Source of the DNA: Clostridia bacterium
GTDB taxonomy: Bacteria; CBDUZB01; JAGLHV01
Length of the DNA: 20,000 bases
Assembly (NCBI GenBank): GCA_030637025.1
Contig: DAOVVV010000006.1
Location: forward strand, 56,750 to 76,749
Reading direction: 5' to 3'
Shown piece after piece: positions 6,663 to 17,413 of this stretch (positions within the stretch are counted from its first letter, which is position 1; the number at the start of each line of letters is the position of its first letter). Under the pieces are notes generated by a model that saw only the letters and a list, made by a program, of their open reading frames with translations, was not told the DNA's origin and searched no databases. The position numbers and the translations under genes were made by a program.

Positions 6663-6699
6663 TTGACAAATAATTATTATTAAACTATAATGATTATTG
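6663..6699 (+). promoter_or_regulatory. Consensus sigma70 promoter with overlapping Per/Fur box
   Basis: TTGACA (6663-6668), 17 bp, TATAAT (6686-6691). CTATAATGATTATTG (6685-6699) resembles the Per box TTATAATnATTATAA. Confidence 0.8.
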
Positions 6700-6721
6700 T
6701 TTAATAATAGGGAGAAAATTT

Positions 6722-7144
6722 ATGAAAAACATGCAGGAGAGATTAAAAGAGAAAAAGGTTGTTTTAACTCCTCAGAGATTAGCTATTGTAGACTTTCTCC
6801 AGAGGAGTAAAATCCATCCTACAGTAGAAGATATTTATAATAATCTTAAAAAGAAATATCCTACTATGTCCTTAGCTACTGTTTACACTAGTTTAGAAAT
6901 TCTTAAACAGGCAGGAGAAATTCAGGAACTTACTATTAGAAAGGAAAAGATTTGTTTTGATCCCAACCCTAAAACACACCATCATTTTTTTTGCCGGGAA
7001 TGTCTAGAGGTTTTAGATGTTGACATTAGTTGTCCCCTTGCTCGCCAGGGATCAGTGGAAGGACATAAAATTGAAGAAGTGCAAGCATATTTTTACGGTA
7101 TCTGTTCTATTTGTCTTAAAAACAAAAGAAGGATGAAAGAGTAA
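6722..7144 (+). CDS. Fur family regulator, PerR-like
   Basis: TPQRLAI...HPTVEDIY...SLATVY...HHHFFCREC...CSIC, with two CxxC Zn motifs; Per-like box upstream. Confidence 0.9.
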   Translation: MKNMQERLKEKKVVLTPQRLAIVDFLQRSKIHPTVEDIYNNLKKKYPTMSLATVYTSLEILKQAGEIQELTIRKEKICFDPNPKTHHHFFCRECLEVLDVDISCPLARQGSVEGHKIEEVQAYFYGICSICLKNKRRMKE

Positions 7145-7201
7145 AGGAATAAAATAAATGTCAAACATTTTGGACATTATTTTTAATAAAAGGAGGAAAA
7201 A

Positions 7202-7513
7202 ATGAAAGTAGAGGAATTTATTAATTCTTGTGTGGATCATGGTTATCATTGGTATCAAGGAAAGCACGAAGGTAAAGATGGGTATTTTGTTGGGAGTGAA
7301 GAATTAAATACTGTCGCTCATTACCAGGTTGAAGCCATCCAACAAAATGACTGGCCAATTTTGGAGAGTCAAATAATCCAGGGAAAAAAAATTCATCATA
7401 TTTCCCGGGTGGTAGGCTATTTTTCACGCATTGAAAATTGGAACAAAAGTAAACAGGGAGAGTTGCAGGACCGGCAGAAAGGGAATTATCGGGTAGGGCA
7501 GGAAAAACCATAG
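7202..7513 (+). CDS. Stand-alone protein with the class III RNR (NrdD) C-terminal glycyl-radical motif
   Basis: ISRVVGYFSRIENWNKSKQGELQDR matches the NrdD RxxGY...WNxxKxxExxDR terminus. AGGAGG RBS. Only 103 aa, with no catalytic barrel or CxxC Zn ribbon. Confidence 0.8.
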   Translation: MKVEEFINSCVDHGYHWYQGKHEGKDGYFVGSEELNTVAHYQVEAIQQNDWPILESQIIQGKKIHHISRVVGYFSRIENWNKSKQGELQDRQKGNYRVGQEKP

Positions 7514-7549
7514 TAAGCCTAAAAATAGTTAAAAGAGAAATATCCTGAT

Positions 7550-7856
7550 TGTGGATATCTTTATCAAGATAAAGTTGTCCGGAATAAATTTCCTGTGAGT
7601 AGTTATCCACAAGCCTGTTTTGAATTACTTGACTTAAATTATGGAAACTCCTTATTATATAAAGACAATTTGAAGTTTTTGCTGTTATAAAAAAACACAA
7701 AAACGGTTAAATTTCAGAGTGAATAAAAGGGTTTTTATTAATGAGAGCACGGTGTATAAGTTGTGGACAATGTGTGGATATTTGTCTCAGAAAGATATTA
7801 TATCCGGATAAAAAACTAAAAAGTGGAAGGTTACTGATTAATCCTTATGTGATAAA
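7550..7856. promoter_or_regulatory. DnaA-box cluster (candidate oriC or DnaA titration/regulatory locus)
   Basis: Perfect TTATCCACA at 7603-7611. One-mismatch reverse boxes at 7550, 7718, 7751, 7762 and 7773, the last three phased at 11 bp. Weaker boxes at 7561 and 7803. Lies in an AT-rich ~470 bp intergenic gap. Confidence 0.65.
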
Positions 7857-7980
7857 TTTCGGGGATAGGAATATATTTGTTCCCAGAGCGCGGTTAAGAT
7901 TCTTTAACCTTTTTGCCCAAAGGAAAACGGAATGAAATAATTATTTTGACATTAAAAAAAGTACAGGAAAGGAGTAAAAT

Positions 7981-8346: not shown

Positions 8347-9306
8347 ATGCAAAAGGAAATAAGTTCTGATTCGAATAAGACTAAAGTTGCCAATAATCTA
8401 ATTGAGCTGGTGGGAAATACCCCCTTAGTAAAATTAAACAGAATTGCTAAAAATATGGAAGCACAGATTATGGGAAAACTGGAATTTTTTAATCCCTGTG
8501 GCAGTGTGAAAGACCGTATCGGAATAAGTATGATTGCAGCAGCAGAAAAAAAAGGTTTGCTCCGGACAGATTCTGTAGTGGTGGAGCCAACCAGTGGAAA
8601 TACAGGGATTGCTTTAGCGTTTGTTTGTGCAGTCAAAGGGTATAGATTAATTCTTACCATGCCGGACACAATGAGTATGGAACGAAGAAAAATGCTGAAG
8701 GCTCTGGGAGCGGAAATAGTTTTAACCCCGGGCATTGCCGGAATGAAAGGGTCAATTGATAAAGCAGAAGAAATTGCTAGAAAGAATAATAAAGCATTTG
8801 TTTTACAACAATTTAAAAATCCGGCTAATCCCCAAATACATCGGGAGACTACCGCTTTGGAAATATGGAGGGATACCGGGGGAAAGGTAGATATTTTGGT
8901 TTCAGGGGTAGGAACCGGAGGAACTATTACCGGTATAGCTGAAGTACTAAAAGAAAAAAAACCACAATTTAAAGCAGTTGCAGTGGAGCCGGCAGATTCC
9001 CCGGTTTTATCCGGAGGAAAAGCAGGGTCGCATAAGATTCAGGGAATTGGGGCCGGATTCATTCCGGATGTTTTAAATCAAAATATTATTGATCAAATAA
9101 TCAAAGTAACTAATGAGCAGGCGATAGAATGTACCGGAAGACTGGCTAAAGAAGAAGGAATATTTGCCGGGGTTTCTTCCGGGGCAGCAGTGCATGCAGC
9201 AATCCAAATAGCCAAAGAAAAAGAAAATAAGGAAAAACTAATAGTTGTTATTCTTCCTGATTCCGGGGACCGGTATCTTTCTACGGAACTTTTTGGAGGG
9301 GAATAA
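8347..9306 (+). CDS. cysK: Cysteine synthase A
   Basis: [11 protein letters not shown] (PLP Lys), [35 protein letters not shown]. Confidence 0.96.
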
Positions 9307-9377
9307 AAAAAACGAGCAAGTAAGAGAGAGGAAATAAAGCTAAGAAAGAAAATAAATAGTAAAAACGGAGAATTCGG

Positions 9378-10547
9378 ATGAAAAAGATATATTTAGATCA
9401 CAATGCTACTACTCCTACCCACCCGGAAGTAGTTAAAGCAATGTTACCTTATTATACAGAAATTTACGGCAATGCCTCCAGTTTTCATCAGTTTGGGCAA
9501 CAAGCACGAAAAGCGGTTGAAGAAGCAAGAGAAAAAGTCGCCGATTTTATTGGGGCCGATGCCGGTGAAATATTTTTTACCAGCGGTGGAACGGAGGCGG
9601 ATAATTTTGCTATTAAAGGAATAGCTTATGCAAATCAGGCTCAAGGAAAACATATCATAACTTCACAGATAGAACATCTTGCAGTTTTAAATCCTTGCAA
9701 ATATTTAGAAAAACAGGGGTTTAGGATTACATATCTTCCGGTAGATAAACATGGTTTGATTAATCCGGAAGAAGTAAGAAAAGCAATAACCGATGAAACA
9801 ATTCTTATCAGTATTATGCAGGCCAATAACGAAACAGGAACAATTGAGCCCATTGCTGAGATTGGAAAAATAGCTAAAGAGAAAGCAATTTATTTTCATA
9901 CAGATGCAGTTCAGTCCGCAGGTAAAATTCCGGTAAAGGTGAAAGAATTGAATGTGCATTTAGTTTCTTTATCCGGGCATAAACTTTATGGGCCCAACGG
10001 TATGGGAGCCCTTTATATTGCTAAAGGAACAAGAATTCAGCCTTTGATGCTGGGTGGACACCATGAGAAAAATAAACGGGCAGGAACAGAAAATGTTCCG
10101 GGAATTGTTGGCTTAGCTAAGGCCGTAGAAATTGCCCAAACTACCGGGGAAGAAGAGGCAATTCGTTTAACTAATTTACGAAATAAATTAGAAAGTCTTA
10201 TCCGTGAAAAAATAGAAGATGTTTATTTAAATGGGCATCCTGAAAAAAGACTACCCAATACTTTAAATATGAGTTTTGAATTTATAGAAGGAGAATCGAT
10301 AATACTCAACCTGGATATGAAAGGTATAGCTGTTTCCAGTGGTTCAGCCTGTACCTCCGGTTCTTTAAATACTTCCCATGTTTTGAAAGCAATGGGAATA
10401 GAGGCGGCAGTTGCTCAAGGGTCAATAAGATTTAGTTTGGGAAAGGATAATACAGATGAAGATATTGACTATGTGTCGGAAGTTTTACCGGAAATTGTAT
10501 CCCGTTTACGGGCAATGTCTCCGCTTTATAAAAATAAAAAGGAATAA
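9378..10547 (+). CDS. nifS: Cysteine desulfurase NifS/IscS
   Basis: YLDHNATT, FTSGGTE, HTDAVQ, SGHKLYGP, SSGSACTS. Confidence 0.96.
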   Translation: MKKIYLDHNATTPTHPEVVKAMLPYYTEIYGNASSFHQFGQQARKAVEEAREKVADFIGADAGEIFFTSGGTEADNFAIKGIAYANQAQGKHIITSQIEHLAVLNPCKYLEKQGFRITYLPVDKHGLINPEEVRKAITDETILISIMQANNETGTIEPIAEIGKIAKEKAIYFHTDAVQSAGKIPVKVKELNVHLVSLSGHKLYGPNGMGALYIAKGTRIQPLMLGGHHEKNKRAGTENVPGIVGLAKAVEIAQTTGEEEAIRLTNLRNKLESLIREKIEDVYLNGHPEKRLPNTLNMSFEFIEGESIILNLDMKGIAVSSGSACTSGSLNTSHVLKAMGIEAAVAQGSIRFSLGKDNTDEDIDYVSEVLPEIVSRLRAMSPLYKNKKE

Positions 10548-10556
10548 GTAAAAAAG

Positions 10557-11474
10557 ATGAATAATCTATCCCTGGTTGAAAAAATAATGAAGTTAAAAGA
10601 AAAAAGAAAAGCTGTTATTCTCGTTCACAATTATCAGCGGCCGGAGGTACAGGATATTGCCGATTATCTTGGAGATTCTTTAGAGTTGAGCCGGAAGGCA
10701 GCACAGACGGATGCGAAAGTAATTGTTTTTTGCGGAGTCCATTTTATGGCTGAGACAGCCGCAATTCTTTCACCGGATAAGACGGTATTAATGCCGGATA
10801 TAAATGCCGGATGCCCTATGGCGGATATGGTGAATGCAGAAAAAGTTAAAGAATTAAAAAGAAAACATCCTGAAGCAGCGGTGGTTTCATATGTGAATAC
10901 AACAGCGGAAGTAAAAACAGAATCGGATGTTTGCTGCACTTCGGCAAATGCCACAGAAGTTGTAAAATCAGTGAAGAGCAGGGAAATAATTTTTCTTCCT
11001 GATAAGTATCTGGGCCATTATGTTTCCTGCCGAACAGGCAAAAATTTAATATTAGTTAATGGGTACTGCCCTGTCCACCTCAAAATTTTAGCTCAGGATA
11101 TAAAAAGTAAGAAAGAAAAATATCCCGGGGCGGAAGTACTGGTACATCCTGAATGTATTCCGGAGGTCATTGCTCTGGCGGATAAAACCCTTTCTACAAG
11201 CGGGATGTGCAAATATGCGAAAGATTCTAAAGTGAAAGAAATGATTATTGGTACAGAGGTAGGGATAATCTATAGGCTGAAAAAAGAAAATCCGGACAAA
11301 AAATTTTATCCTGCTTCGGAAATAGCAATATGTCCGAATATGAAACTTAATAATTTAGAGAAAGTTTTATGGGCATTGGAAGATATGAAATTTGAGGTAA
11401 AGGTGGAAAAAGAGACCAGAATAAAAGCAAAAAAGGCAATTGACAAAATGCTTCAATTTAGTAGAATAAATTAA
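10557..11474 (+). CDS. nadA: Quinolinate synthase
   Basis: HNYQ, GDSL, FCGVHFMAE, GCPMA, YVNT, CPVH, HPEC, CPNMK. Confidence 0.96.
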   Translation: MNNLSLVEKIMKLKEKRKAVILVHNYQRPEVQDIADYLGDSLELSRKAAQTDAKVIVFCGVHFMAETAAILSPDKTVLMPDINAGCPMADMVNAEKVKELKRKHPEAAVVSYVNTTAEVKTESDVCCTSANATEVVKSVKSREIIFLPDKYLGHYVSCRTGKNLILVNGYCPVHLKILAQDIKSKKEKYPGAEVLVHPECIPEVIALADKTLSTSGMCKYAKDSKVKEMIIGTEVGIIYRLKKENPDKKFYPASEIAICPNMKLNNLEKVLWALEDMKFEVKVEKETRIKAKKAIDKMLQFSRIN

Positions 11475-11489
11475 TTAGAGAGGGTGGTT

Positions 11490-11870
11490 ATGCAATACAG
11501 TGAAAAAGTAATGGAACATTTCCGTAATCCCAGAAATGTAGGAGAATTAGAAAATCCCGATGGTATTGGTCATGTGGGCAATCCTGTTTGCGGAGATGTT
11601 ATGGAATTGTATATTAAAGTTAAAGAGAATATAATCATTGATATAAAATTTAAAACATTTGGTTGTGGTGCTGCTATAGCTACCAGTTCAATACTTACGG
11701 AACTGGTTAAAGGGAAAAGCATTGAACAGGCACTAACAATATCTAATAAAGCAGTTGCCGAAGCCCTGGGTGGTTTACCCCGGATAAAAATGCATTGTTC
11801 TGTGCTGGCTGAAGATGCATTAAAGTCAGCTATTGATGATTATTATAATAAACAAGTAAAAAATAAATGA
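11490..11870 (+). CDS. nifU: Fe-S scaffold NifU/IscU (ATG 11490 preferred over GTG 11484)
   Basis: YSEKVMEHFRNPRNVG, GNPVCGD, FGCGAAIA, KMHCS. Confidence 0.95.
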   Translation: MQYSEKVMEHFRNPRNVGELENPDGIGHVGNPVCGDVMELYIKVKENIIIDIKFKTFGCGAAIATSSILTELVKGKSIEQALTISNKAVAEALGGLPRIKMHCSVLAEDALKSAIDDYYNKQVKNK

Positions 11871-13236: not shown

Positions 13237-15030
13237 ATGAATAAAGAGATAGGTTTAACTATTGATGGACAGAAGGTGAGAATTTCTGAAGATAATACTA
13301 TTTTAGCTGCGGCTAAAAAAATAGGGATAATTATTCCTACTTTGTGTTATCATCCGGATCTTAAGGTAAACGGAGTTTGCCGCATTTGTGTGGTAGAAAT
13401 AAAAGGAAGAAATAAGCTGGAATGTGCTTGTTCCACTCCGGTAGAAGAAGGCATGGAAATATTTACTCATACCCAGAGAGTACTTAAAGACCGGCGGATG
13501 AATTTAGAACTAATCCTTTCTTCCCATCCTACAGATTGTCTTATTTGCATTAAAAACGGAAATTGCGAATTACAGGATTTAGCTATCCGGTTAGGTATTA
13601 GAGAAGAGTTACGTTTTCCACACCATATAAAAGAGGGACATCGGGATAATACCTCTGTTGCTTTAAACATTGATTCGGAAAAATGTATTGCCTGCGAAAG
13701 GTGTGTTTATATTTGTAGTGAAATTCAAAAAGTAAATGCATTAGCGATGTTGGAAAGAGGTTCCAAAGTTTATGCTGCGGCGAAACCGGATTTACTTCAC
13801 AGTCCTTGTGTTAAATGTGGACAATGCACTTCGTACTGTCCTACAGGAGCCATTTATGAAGAAGAACACACCCAGGAGGTATGGGAAGCACTTAACAATC
13901 CGGAAATGGTTGTCGTTGCCCAGATTGCTCCCTCGGTAAGGGTTGCTTTAGGTGAAGAATTTGGTTTGCCGGCGGGGACTTCCGTTACGAAAAAAATTTA
14001 TACTGCACTGAAGTTATTAGGTGTTGACTATGTGTTTGACACTAATTTTGGTGCGGATTTAACTATTATGGAAGAGTCATCGGAGTTTATCAAAAGATAT
14101 AAAGAAGAAAAAGACAGACTTCCTCTGATTACCAGCTGTTGTCCTGCCTGGGTTGATTATTTAGAAAAGTTTTGTCCTGAATTTATCGATAATTTCTCTT
14201 CGGCAAAATCTCCTCATCAAATGTTGGGGGTAATGGTAAAAACCTACTGGGCGGAAAAAATGAAAATCCCCAAAGAAAAAATATTTATGGTTTCCATCAT
14301 GCCCTGTACGGCAAAAAAATATGAAATACTTCGCTGTTATGATATGTTTTCTTCGGGGGTGCAGGATGTAGATGTTACTATTACCACCCGGGAATTTGCC
14401 AGGGTTATTAAACAAGCGGGAATTGATTTGGTTAATCTTCCCGATGGAAAAGCGGATGCTCCTTTGGGTATTTATTCGGGAGCAGGTTTAATCTTTGGAG
14501 CCACCGGAGGAGTAATGGAAGCGGCTTTGAGAACCGCTTATGAATTTATTACCGAAAAAGAGTTGTCTAATATTGATTTTGAAGCGGTGCGTGGCTTACA
14601 GGGAGTAAAAGAAGCAGAAGTTGAGATAGGTAGTAAAAAAATAAAAGTTGCTGTTGCGCACGGCCTGGGTAATGTAAAGTATGTCCTGGACCGGGTCGCA
14701 GAGGGAAAAAGAAAAAATCAATTGCCCTATCATTTTATAGAAGTAATGGCTTGTCCCGGAGGATGTGTCGGCGGTGGGGGACAACCTTATGGCGGTTTGG
14801 AAATAAGGGAAAAAAGAGCCGGGGCAATTTACCGGGAAGAAAAAGAGTTGACTTTTCGTCAATCGCATAAGAATCCGTATATTAAACAGTTATATAAAGA
14901 ATATTTAGGAGAACCTTTAGGTGATAAAGCCCGAAAGTTACTGCATACACAATATTACGACCGGCCCCTTTACGGAGGAGACGAGTTTTCCTGCCCTTAT
15001 AAAGATAGGTTAAGAGTAACCAAAGGATAA
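13237..15030 (+). CDS. hydA: [FeFe] hydrogenase catalytic subunit, group A, with N-terminal F-clusters
   Basis: H-cluster motifs TSCCPAW, MPCTAKKYE, EVMACPGGCVGGGGQP. N-terminal 2Fe-2S (IPTLC..CRIC..C), His-ligated HxxxCxxC and two 4Fe-4S motifs. Confidence 0.96.
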   Translation: MNKEIGLTIDGQKVRISEDNTILAAAKKIGIIIPTLCYHPDLKVNGVCRICVVEIKGRNKLECACSTPVEEGMEIFTHTQRVLKDRRMNLELILSSHPTDCLICIKNGNCELQDLAIRLGIREELRFPHHIKEGHRDNTSVALNIDSEKCIACERCVYICSEIQKVNALAMLERGSKVYAAAKPDLLHSPCVKCGQCTSYCPTGAIYEEEHTQEVWEALNNPEMVVVAQIAPSVRVALGEEFGLPAGTSVTKKIYTALKLLGVDYVFDTNFGADLTIMEESSEFIKRYKEEKDRLPLITSCCPAWVDYLEKFCPEFIDNFSSAKSPHQMLGVMVKTYWAEKMKIPKEKIFMVSIMPCTAKKYEILRCYDMFSSGVQDVDVTITTREFARVIKQAGIDLVNLPDGKADAPLGIYSGAGLIFGATGGVMEAALRTAYEFITEKELSNIDFEAVRGLQGVKEAEVEIGSKKIKVAVAHGLGNVKYVLDRVAEGKRKNQLPYHFIEVMACPGGCVGGGGQPYGGLEIREKRAGAIYREEKELTFRQSHKNPYIKQLYKEYLGEPLGDKARKLLHTQYYDRPLYGGDEFSCPYKDRLRVTKG

Positions 15031-16809: not shown

Positions 16810-17106
16810 ATGAAATATTATACTTGGGATAACAAAAAGAATGAAAAATTAATTACTGAACTAAATATTTCTTTTGAAGAAATAGTATTCTATATTGAAA
16901 AAGGTTGTTTACTTGATATTTTAAAGCATCCAAATAAAAAAAAGTATGAAGGACAGTACATTTTTGTGATTCGGGTAGAAGATTATGTTTATTTAGTGCC
17001 TTTTGTTGAAAATGAAAGAGAGATTTTCTTGAAAACAATTATTCCTAGTAGAAAAGCTACCCGTAAATATTTGAAAGGAGGGGGAAACGATGGCCAAAAC
17101 GAATAA
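16810..17106 (+). CDS. BrnT-like type II toxin
   Basis: WDNKKNEKL...ISFEEI...HPN..KY.GQ...YVYLVPFVE....IFLKTIIPSRKAT; overlaps the downstream antitoxin. Confidence 0.85.
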   Translation: MKYYTWDNKKNEKLITELNISFEEIVFYIEKGCLLDILKHPNKKKYEGQYIFVIRVEDYVYLVPFVENEREIFLKTIIPSRKATRKYLKGGGNDGQNE

Positions 17107-17413
17107 AGAAGAAAAAGAAATTATTGAATCTTACGAAAAAGGAGAATGGCAGTCAATAAGAAGACCAAAAGAAAAATTGCAGCAGTATAGAGCTTATGCG
17201 AAAGCAACCTTTAAAAAAAATAGAAGAATAAATATAAGGATATCCACAAAAGATATAGAAGAAATCCAGAAATTAGCGATGGAAGAGGGTCTTCCTTACC
17301 AGACGCTTATAACAAGTATTCTGCATAAATATATTACAGGGAAGCTTAAATTTTCAAATCAGGGGAGTAGGGTAAAAAATAGTAAAAGGGCATGCACGCC
17401 AAAAGAAAAGTAA
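17090..17413 (+). CDS. CopG/BrnA-like ribbon-helix-helix antitoxin
   Basis: EEKEIIESYEKGEW...RINIRIS..D...I...A.EEGLPYQTLITSILHKY. Confidence 0.85.
   Translation: MAKTNKEEKEIIESYEKGEWQSIRRPKEKLQQYRAYAKATFKKNRRINIRISTKDIEEIQKLAMEEGLPYQTLITSILHKYITGKLKFSNQGSRVKNSKRACTPKEK

Follow-up and report, generated by a model that had tools for sequence, protein, structure and literature searches.

Glycyl-radical enzymes are destroyed by oxygen through a cut at the radical glycine, and O2 cleaves NrdD, the class III (anaerobic) ribonucleotide reductase (RNR), at its radical Gly. Some glycyl-radical enzymes work with small subunits, such as the beta and gamma subunits of benzylsuccinate synthase and HpdC of 4-hydroxyphenylacetate decarboxylase; in these enzymes the radical Gly lies on the large subunit. 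For pyruvate formate-lyase (PFL), the portions of PMC13450708 and PMC8683613 available to us describe rescue of the cleaved enzyme by GrcA (YfiD), a protein with a disordered N-terminal half and a structured C-terminal half, and from the same portions we take the name and role of Y06I of phage T4, a phage-borne GrcA homolog. According to section 5.3 of the 2026 review (PMC13450708), the section on which we rely, spare parts are known for formate lyases alone, and whether other glycyl-radical enzymes have them is yet to be determined. Does NrdD have one? Here we describe a candidate, a 103-amino-acid (aa) protein encoded at positions 7202..7513 (+ strand) of a 20,000-nucleotide stretch of the Clostridia bacterium contig DAOVVV010000006.1 (hereafter, the window). 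Our data make it very likely that this small protein is real, is under selection and carries the radical Gly of NrdD in trans. In the literature searched, with subscription journals outside its coverage, there was no report of a spare part or of a stand-alone or trans-acting radical domain for NrdD, and the consulted parts of two surveys of the RNR family (PMC9669993; bioRxiv 10.1101/2022.04.23.489257; supplements outside) mention no such protein.

The open reading frame (ORF) of the small protein is preceded by a ribosome-binding site, AGGAGG (7191..7196, + strand), read from the sequence 5 nt ahead of the ATG. Residues 61-103 plus the stop codon (7382..7513, + strand) form the glycyl-radical tail, in which residues 69-73 read RVVGY, the RxxGY glycyl-radical motif of NrdD; the codon of Gly72 is GGC (7415-7417), inside SRVVGYFSRIENWNKSKQGELQDR. 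Positions 531-561 of the 562 in the Pfam model NRDD (PF13597) align with residues 62-93 (26.6 bits versus a cut-off of 26.2; E = 3e-6), positions 548-580 of the 581 in TIGR02487 match as well (28.4 bits versus a cut-off of 326), and four further NCBIfam models of NrdD match at their C-terminal ends. In BLASTP, residues 57-99 aligned with residues 761-803 of the NrdD encoded in the same genome, with 27/43 positions identical (E = 2e-17), while the N-domain (residues 1-60; 7202..7381, + strand) had no match in that NrdD. The Pfam NRDD and TIGR02487 scans placed no catalytic alpha/beta barrel with its finger-loop cysteine(s) in the small protein, and no CxxC stands ahead of the Gly motif in the 103 residues, so that the four-Cys Zn ribbon is absent too. 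The PFL-type glycyl-radical domain PF01228 gave no match; at E ≤ 1, the Pfam scan returned NRDD alone. An earlier note, made from the letters of this DNA, had read here a 103-aa ORF with a strong ribosome-binding site, an NrdD-type tail with Gly72 at 7415-7417 and an N-domain of about 60 aa in place of the Zn ribbon and barrel. Our re-reading and the Pfam and NCBIfam matches agree with the ORF, its signals and its tail, and the profile and BLASTP matches agree with the N-domain. An antisense ORF (7221..7700, 159 aa) was set aside as spurious, since conservation lies in the + frame.

What is the N-domain? It belongs to no named family and is predicted to be a compact alpha-beta3-alpha2 unit. 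AlphaFold2, supplied with 65 homologs, modeled residues 1-60 as a helix, three strands and two helices with a predicted local distance difference test (pLDDT) score of 88-92, and the tail on its own at a low-confidence pLDDT of 50-65. Foldseek found no match to the N-domain in the PDB at E ≤ 0.001. The best hits of a wide VIA-align comparison (Z up to 5.7) were HicA-like small alpha/beta folds, in the range usual for chance arrangements, and hhalign found no likeness to any part of the NrdD profile (probability, 0.1%). A search of the ESM Atlas with residues 1-64 gave a top score of 0.80 and led to unnamed clusters of ~100 aa with NRDD, partly viral, which we take as a lead only. Longer proteins containing the N-domain were not found by search, which is weak evidence. 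In one called frame, P0103 (802 aa), the small protein is joined to a DNA polymerase of family A that has a 3'-5' exonuclease domain.

Judged by its sequences, the family is large and unnamed, combines a new N-domain of ~60 aa with an NrdD tail, and represents a real, selected gene. The first protein search returned 42 matches, 13 of which were full-length relatives (98-114 aa, 34-80% identity). A scan with one genome per species confirmed 434 stretches; the best 80 comprised 61 small ORFs of ≤160 aa that share this N-domain and tail, 2 longer called frames with the same end and 17 ordinary NrdD ends. Carriers were labeled Omnitrophota, Elusimicrobia, Auribacterota, UBP3, many Planctomycetota and one archaeal bin. 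With a profile of 65 members, we recovered 1008 representatives at E ≤ 0.001 and 618 at E ≤ 1e-10 from 1.84 billion cluster representatives, and the top 150 were nearly all 95-165 aa long and aligned end to end. The common layout, into which the window's protein fits, is an N-domain of ~60-75 aa with F6 and W51, followed by the tail RVVGY...NWNKSK, for a total of ~95-165 aa. Ten positions are invariant in the 65 sequences (R69, G72, Y73, W80, N81, K84, G86, E87, L88 and R91), and F6 and W51 are nearly so. Over six same-genus pairs, the ratio of non-synonymous to synonymous substitution rates (dN/dS) was 0.066-0.186 and was low in both halves of the protein. Full-length homologs under purifying selection, for which the earlier note had asked, are therefore plentiful, with dN/dS of 0.07-0.19. 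Tails of small proteins were closer to the NrdD tail of their own genome (0.753) than to those of other genomes (0.693), a difference reached by 0 of 10000 permutations and confounded by kinship.

Several sequences on the edges of the family were also recorded. One decayed homolog (L172, genome G151) is without RVVGY, and no NrdD was found in that genome. In the archaeal bin (G077; L052, L114), the contig with the small protein is 2.3 kb long and may be mis-binned or viral, and the protein's tail is unlike that of the bin's NrdD, which is of another subclass (RVVGYLRPVANWSDGK...). A second kind of stand-alone NrdD tail consists of 50-85-aa proteins with one Zn-ribbon CxxC followed by the Gly tail (P0014, P0016, P0017, P0020, P0024, P0025, P0030, P0033, P0034 and P0036; viral L183, L208, L220 and L227). 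Some of these are labeled archaeal (Aenigmarchaeota, Heimdallarchaeota) and some come from viral contigs; they may represent a further split form or a further spare part. In P0035 (174 aa), the CxxC-plus-Gly tail is N-terminal, with ~110 residues after it.

Which enzyme could the small protein serve? The window's genome assembly (2.36 Mb in 77 contigs, 97.8% complete) has a single full-length nrdD, on contig 31, whose 804-aa product has an ATP cone and the four-Cys Zn ribbon CEQC...CQFC. This NrdD keeps its RVVGY Gly tail and ends in ...SRVVGYFSRIQNWNKSKKGELKDRRKGNYSVAG. An NrdG-type activase is present (TIGR02495, 186 bits), and neither PF01228 nor any PFL-type glycyl-radical enzyme was found in this genome. 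This organism therefore does not have a split enzyme, and NrdD and NrdG are the sole plausible partners of the small protein. These data settle the search for full-length nrdD and nrdG that the earlier note had proposed: both genes exist, NrdD retains its Gly loop, and an obligate subunit of a split enzyme, which the note had named as the outcome that would overturn its reading, does not apply here. Profile scans also confirmed its observation that neither nrdD nor nrdG lies within the window.

The small gene and nrdD share 31 comparable tail codons: 9 are the same in both, 17 have synonymous and 5 non-synonymous differences, and 26 residues are identical. Because synonymous differences are many, the two tails are old paralogs under selection and not a recent fragment, and a recent duplication of the nrdD 3' end was rejected on these codon differences.

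We then read the C terminus of the host NrdD in 64 carrier genomes (65 rows), 8 of which were unreadable owing to contig ends or because no NrdD was found. In 38 of the 56 readable genomes, NrdD was without the radical Gly, and in 18 the RVVGY tail was kept. The Gly-less NrdDs are intact frames of 790-845 aa in which the Zn ribbon and all catalytic positions invariant in the NrdD alignment are present. At four loci (L040, L045, L046 and L047) the gene order is nrdR, Gly-less nrdD, small gene, nrdG, with a thioredoxin-like gene between the small gene and nrdG at L046; in genome G007, 1.8 kb separate the small gene from nrdD, and an NrdG-like gene adjoins the small gene. The NrdD of genome G089 (L133), which also encodes a small protein (L093), has a still recognizable tail with RLDSY for RVVGY, a Gly-to-Ser change, and resembles a step on the way to losing the cis Gly. 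In a quick IQ-TREE tree of the NrdD core (58 rows, tails excluded), the Gly-less state required 6 changes, at least 5 of them forced by well-supported branches, and Gly-bearing forms were basal to the Gly-less groups.

By sequence, then, the small protein is the sole carrier of the radical Gly wherever NrdD is without it. Given 38/56 carrier NrdDs without Gly and four nrdR-nrdD-small gene-nrdG operons, we infer that the NrdD core can receive its radical in trans from the small protein, and must do so where NrdD has no Gly. To look at this association in an unselected sample, we used 121 Planctomycetota genomes of ≥90% completeness; because these genomes are kin, the results are given as counts without a test. 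A Gly-bearing NrdD of this subclass was present in 22 genomes, 6 of which had the small protein, and a Gly-less NrdD was present in 6 genomes, 5 of which had it.

The Gly-less tails of Planctomycetota NrdDs (L125, L128, L132, L134-L139 and L146-L162) are themselves conserved, with the pattern ..GI.RIDETE..W.R.A.AEL.R.E.., and many terminate in a pair of cysteines, reminiscent of the C-terminal Cys pairs by which class I and II RNRs are re-reduced. The former radical tail may have a new role.

In the window, the small gene lies 57 bp behind a gene for a PerR-like regulator of the Fur family (6722..7144, + strand; 140 aa; PF01475, 89 bits). The regulator has two CxxC pairs, CREC and CSIC, as in the Fur fold with its structural Zn site. 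Ahead of it lies a sigma-70-type promoter, TTGACA-17-TATAAT (6663..6691, + strand), that agrees with the consensus at 12/12 positions. Two Fur/Per-box-like palindromes, ATAATNATTAT, occupy the promoter spacer (6670-6680) and the -10 hexamer (6687-6697). The window has no further match (2 in all, versus 0.23 expected), and this promoter is the single place in the 2.36-Mb genome where two such boxes occur within 40 bp. From their sequence and position, the boxes are putative operators. No terminator-like site was seen on the + strand from the promoter through the end of the small gene, including the gap between the two genes. Because no such site separates them, the PerR-like gene and the small gene are probably co-transcribed from one strong, operator-covered promoter. 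The PerR-like gene 57 bp upstream and the Per-box-like site in its promoter, both described in the earlier note, are thus real features of the locus, by PF01475 and by the paired palindromes.

Is the small gene linked to stress genes elsewhere? We examined 19 loci from genomes in which NrdD keeps its Gly; these count in the 13 rows of the window's clade, of which one was unread. In 16/19 loci, genes for redox, stress or iron functions lay no more than two genes away: Rrf2-family regulators in 8, Hcp in 3 and Fur/PerR in 1, the window itself. In two relatives of the same genus, the small gene is flanked by reverse rubrerythrin, desulfoferrodoxin and rubrerythrin, and in a third by an Rrf2 regulator and rubrerythrin; other neighbors in the set were ferritin, NifU, cysteine synthase, a 4Fe-4S protein of 240-280 aa and Rex. 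At none of the 19 loci was the small gene next to an nrd gene. In lineages with a Gly-less NrdD, the small gene lies either in an nrd operon (5 loci) or, in Planctomycetota, among unrelated housekeeping genes with no conserved neighbor, and redox or stress genes were absent from every Gly-less Planctomycetota locus scanned. This split in gene neighborhood would fit a conditional spare part in one set of lineages and a constitutive subunit in the other. Of the linkage to perR and oxidative-stress genes that the earlier note had proposed to test, the stress and redox part holds across the clade (16/19), and the perR part does not, since the other members mostly have Rrf2 regulators. A 64-aa ORF behind the small gene in the window (7741..7935) was considered as a remnant of the relatives' 4Fe-4S protein and was rejected, as tblastn gave no match.

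Members of the family are also carried by phages. A scan of uncultivated viral contigs (IMG/VR) confirmed 90 stretches, and the 80 retained contained 67 small ORFs of the family (84-225 aa as called), 6 full NrdDs, 4 mini ORFs with one CxxC plus the tail, and 3 outside the motif filter. By the NrdD profile, NrdD lay within 5 kb of the viral small ORF at one locus (L192). The neighbors in 35 viral loci included portal, terminase, capsid, Mu F-like and nucleotide-metabolism genes. A second copy of the small protein in G007 (L030, contig 6; 97 aa) is placed inside a Mu-like prophage because it is flanked by Mu-type portal and Mu F-like genes; the NrdD of that genome has no Gly. PHROGs held no family for the 6 members tried, and GenBank phage records gave no tblastn match to the small protein. 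The viral NrdD frames L199, L213, L238 and L240 are 1200-1680 aa long and match the profile in three or four separated pieces, probably as a result of inteins.

How might the small protein act? We propose that NrdG, a radical S-adenosylmethionine activase, would abstract a hydrogen from Gly72 in the flexible tail and that the N-domain would dock on NrdD; the tail would then enter the NrdD barrel in place of the enzyme's own C-terminal tail and give the radical to the catalytic cysteine. In the window's organism, peroxide or oxygen stress would lift repression by the PerR-like protein, the small protein would be made, and it would restore NrdD molecules whose tail had been cut off by O2 at the radical Gly. 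In many other lineages, the small protein would have become the sole radical-bearing subunit, because their NrdD lost its own Gly. Since the window's genome has an NrdD with its own Gly and a small gene probably co-transcribed with a PerR-like repressor, we consider it moderately probable that the small protein is, in this genome, a stress-linked spare part for O2-cleaved NrdD, analogous and not homologous to GrcA.

Several of our observations weigh against this reading. The top NCBIfam model of the upstream regulator is PerR (NF052545), at 124.1 bits versus a cut-off of 180, and NF047406 reaches 78.5 bits versus a cut-off of 200; of all Fur-family models, those for PerR nevertheless score best. 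Single ATAATNATTAT boxes are not enriched in the genome (47 versus ~39 expected from base composition) and define no regulon: by eye, none of the 47 lies 5' of a recognizable stress gene, a survey in which the downstream ORFs were not scanned against Pfam. Linkage to PerR was seen in the window's genome alone, relatives of the same genus having other neighbors, and 3 of the 19 Gly-keeping loci have no stress neighbors. A cleaved NrdD would also retain a stub and its Zn ribbon, both of which the small protein would have to displace. Genome G148 has a Gly-less NrdD with no small protein seen. The protein is the sole Gly carrier in most carriers, and repair is therefore not the general role of the family. 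The repair subunit suggested in the earlier note thus survives in part: the stand-alone, selected protein and its link to stress genes in the clade stand, and the idea of a spare does not extend to the 38/56 readable carriers in which it is the only Gly bearer.

One alternative is that the small protein is a regular radical subunit with no cleavage involved. NrdD would work with either tail, and the small protein would raise or tune the radical-loaded pool, for example under redox shifts. Its constitutive role as carrier in 38/56 readable carrier genomes fits this view, as do the 6/22 Planctomycetota with a Gly-bearing NrdD that have the small protein, for which stress neighbors were not shown. 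However, cis and trans tails would vie for one pocket as long as the cis tail is intact, and in the window's clade the gene keeps company with redox-sensing repressors and genes for defense against O2 and reactive oxygen species (16/19 loci), never with nrd genes; for the window's organism we therefore regard this alternative as unlikely. Still less probable, in our view, is a brake or decoy for times of stress, in which the small protein would either sequester NrdG activity or block the NrdD barrel with no turnover, and so shut down or shield the enzyme under oxygen. A position behind a peroxide-type repressor would suit a brake, and the free flexible tail, as modeled, would be an easy substrate for NrdG, but lineages with a Gly-less NrdD need a catalytically competent small protein: their NrdDs are intact, with catalytic and Zn residues conserved, and the radical motif is invariant in 65/65 sequences.

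Could the small gene simply be a decaying, functionless duplicate of the nrdD 3' end? Such an origin would account for the fact that the last ~40 residues alone resemble a known protein. We find it scarcely credible in view of orthologs across several phyla, a conserved N-domain, dN/dS of 0.07-0.19, synonymous differences from nrdD at 17/31 tail codons and the strong ribosome-binding site.

Returning to the spare-part reading, we tentatively extend it to a broader scenario, which we regard as possible and rather less secure: the small protein may be a detachable radical cofactor of class III RNR caught in a ratchet. It would have been a spare part in a stress operon at its origin, or would still be one in the window's clade; its presence would have let NrdD lose the cis Gly at least 5 times, by way of forms such as the Gly-to-Ser intermediate, and so produced a two-component RNR with the radical on a subunit of 100 aa, and phages would have the piece by itself, as a means of re-arming or taking over the host NrdD. 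The small protein may be the first repair part known for anaerobic RNR, the enzyme that anaerobes need for DNA precursors. It is a concrete and widespread candidate that comes with natural controls, since in some lineages NrdD cannot carry the radical without it and other lineages have both. If confirmed, this candidate would add a two-subunit architecture to the class III RNRs, account for the restart of DNA synthesis in strict anaerobes that have been exposed to oxygen and reveal a new phage auxiliary gene.

Other features of the window were noted in passing. Within 4 kb of the small gene, cysK (cysteine synthase), a class V aminotransferase gene (NifS/IscS-like), nadA (quinolinate synthase) and a gene for an IscU-like NifU_N protein follow one another on the + strand (8347..11870), and an FeFe hydrogenase is encoded at 13237..15030. 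At 16810..17413, a 98-aa ORF resembles a BrnT toxin (Pfam BrnT_toxin, E = 1e-7; 32.6 bits, under the cut-off of 34.5 bits) and is followed by an overlapping ORF of 107 aa with no family match; the two are a possible toxin-antitoxin pair.

How does the small protein compare with known systems? The principle of a spare part is already known; what is new is the enzyme, the family of proteins and a two-component form that is obligate. Like GrcA/YfiD of E. coli, the small protein is a small stand-alone copy of the C-terminal part that bears the radical Gly, encoded apart from an enzyme that keeps its own Gly (here, the 804-aa NrdD), and by analogy it is presumably activated by the large enzyme's own activase. 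The two are not homologous, however: the tail described here is of the NrdD type and not of the PFL type, the protein does not belong to PF01228, and its target would be a class III RNR. The architecture is also reversed, with a predicted folded N-terminal half and flexible tail here and, in the accounts of YfiD available to us, the opposite arrangement. As with Y06I of T4, the family has phage-borne members, but the enzyme tail that is copied is another one. From NrdD itself the small protein has the tail RVVGY...NWNKSKxGELxDR, with the 27/43 identities to the NrdD of its own genome, and it differs in having no Zn ribbon or catalytic barrel and an unrelated N-domain. Finally, as with the beta and gamma subunits of benzylsuccinate synthase and with HpdC, a small extra polypeptide would work with a large glycyl-radical enzyme, but here it is the small protein that carries the radical Gly.

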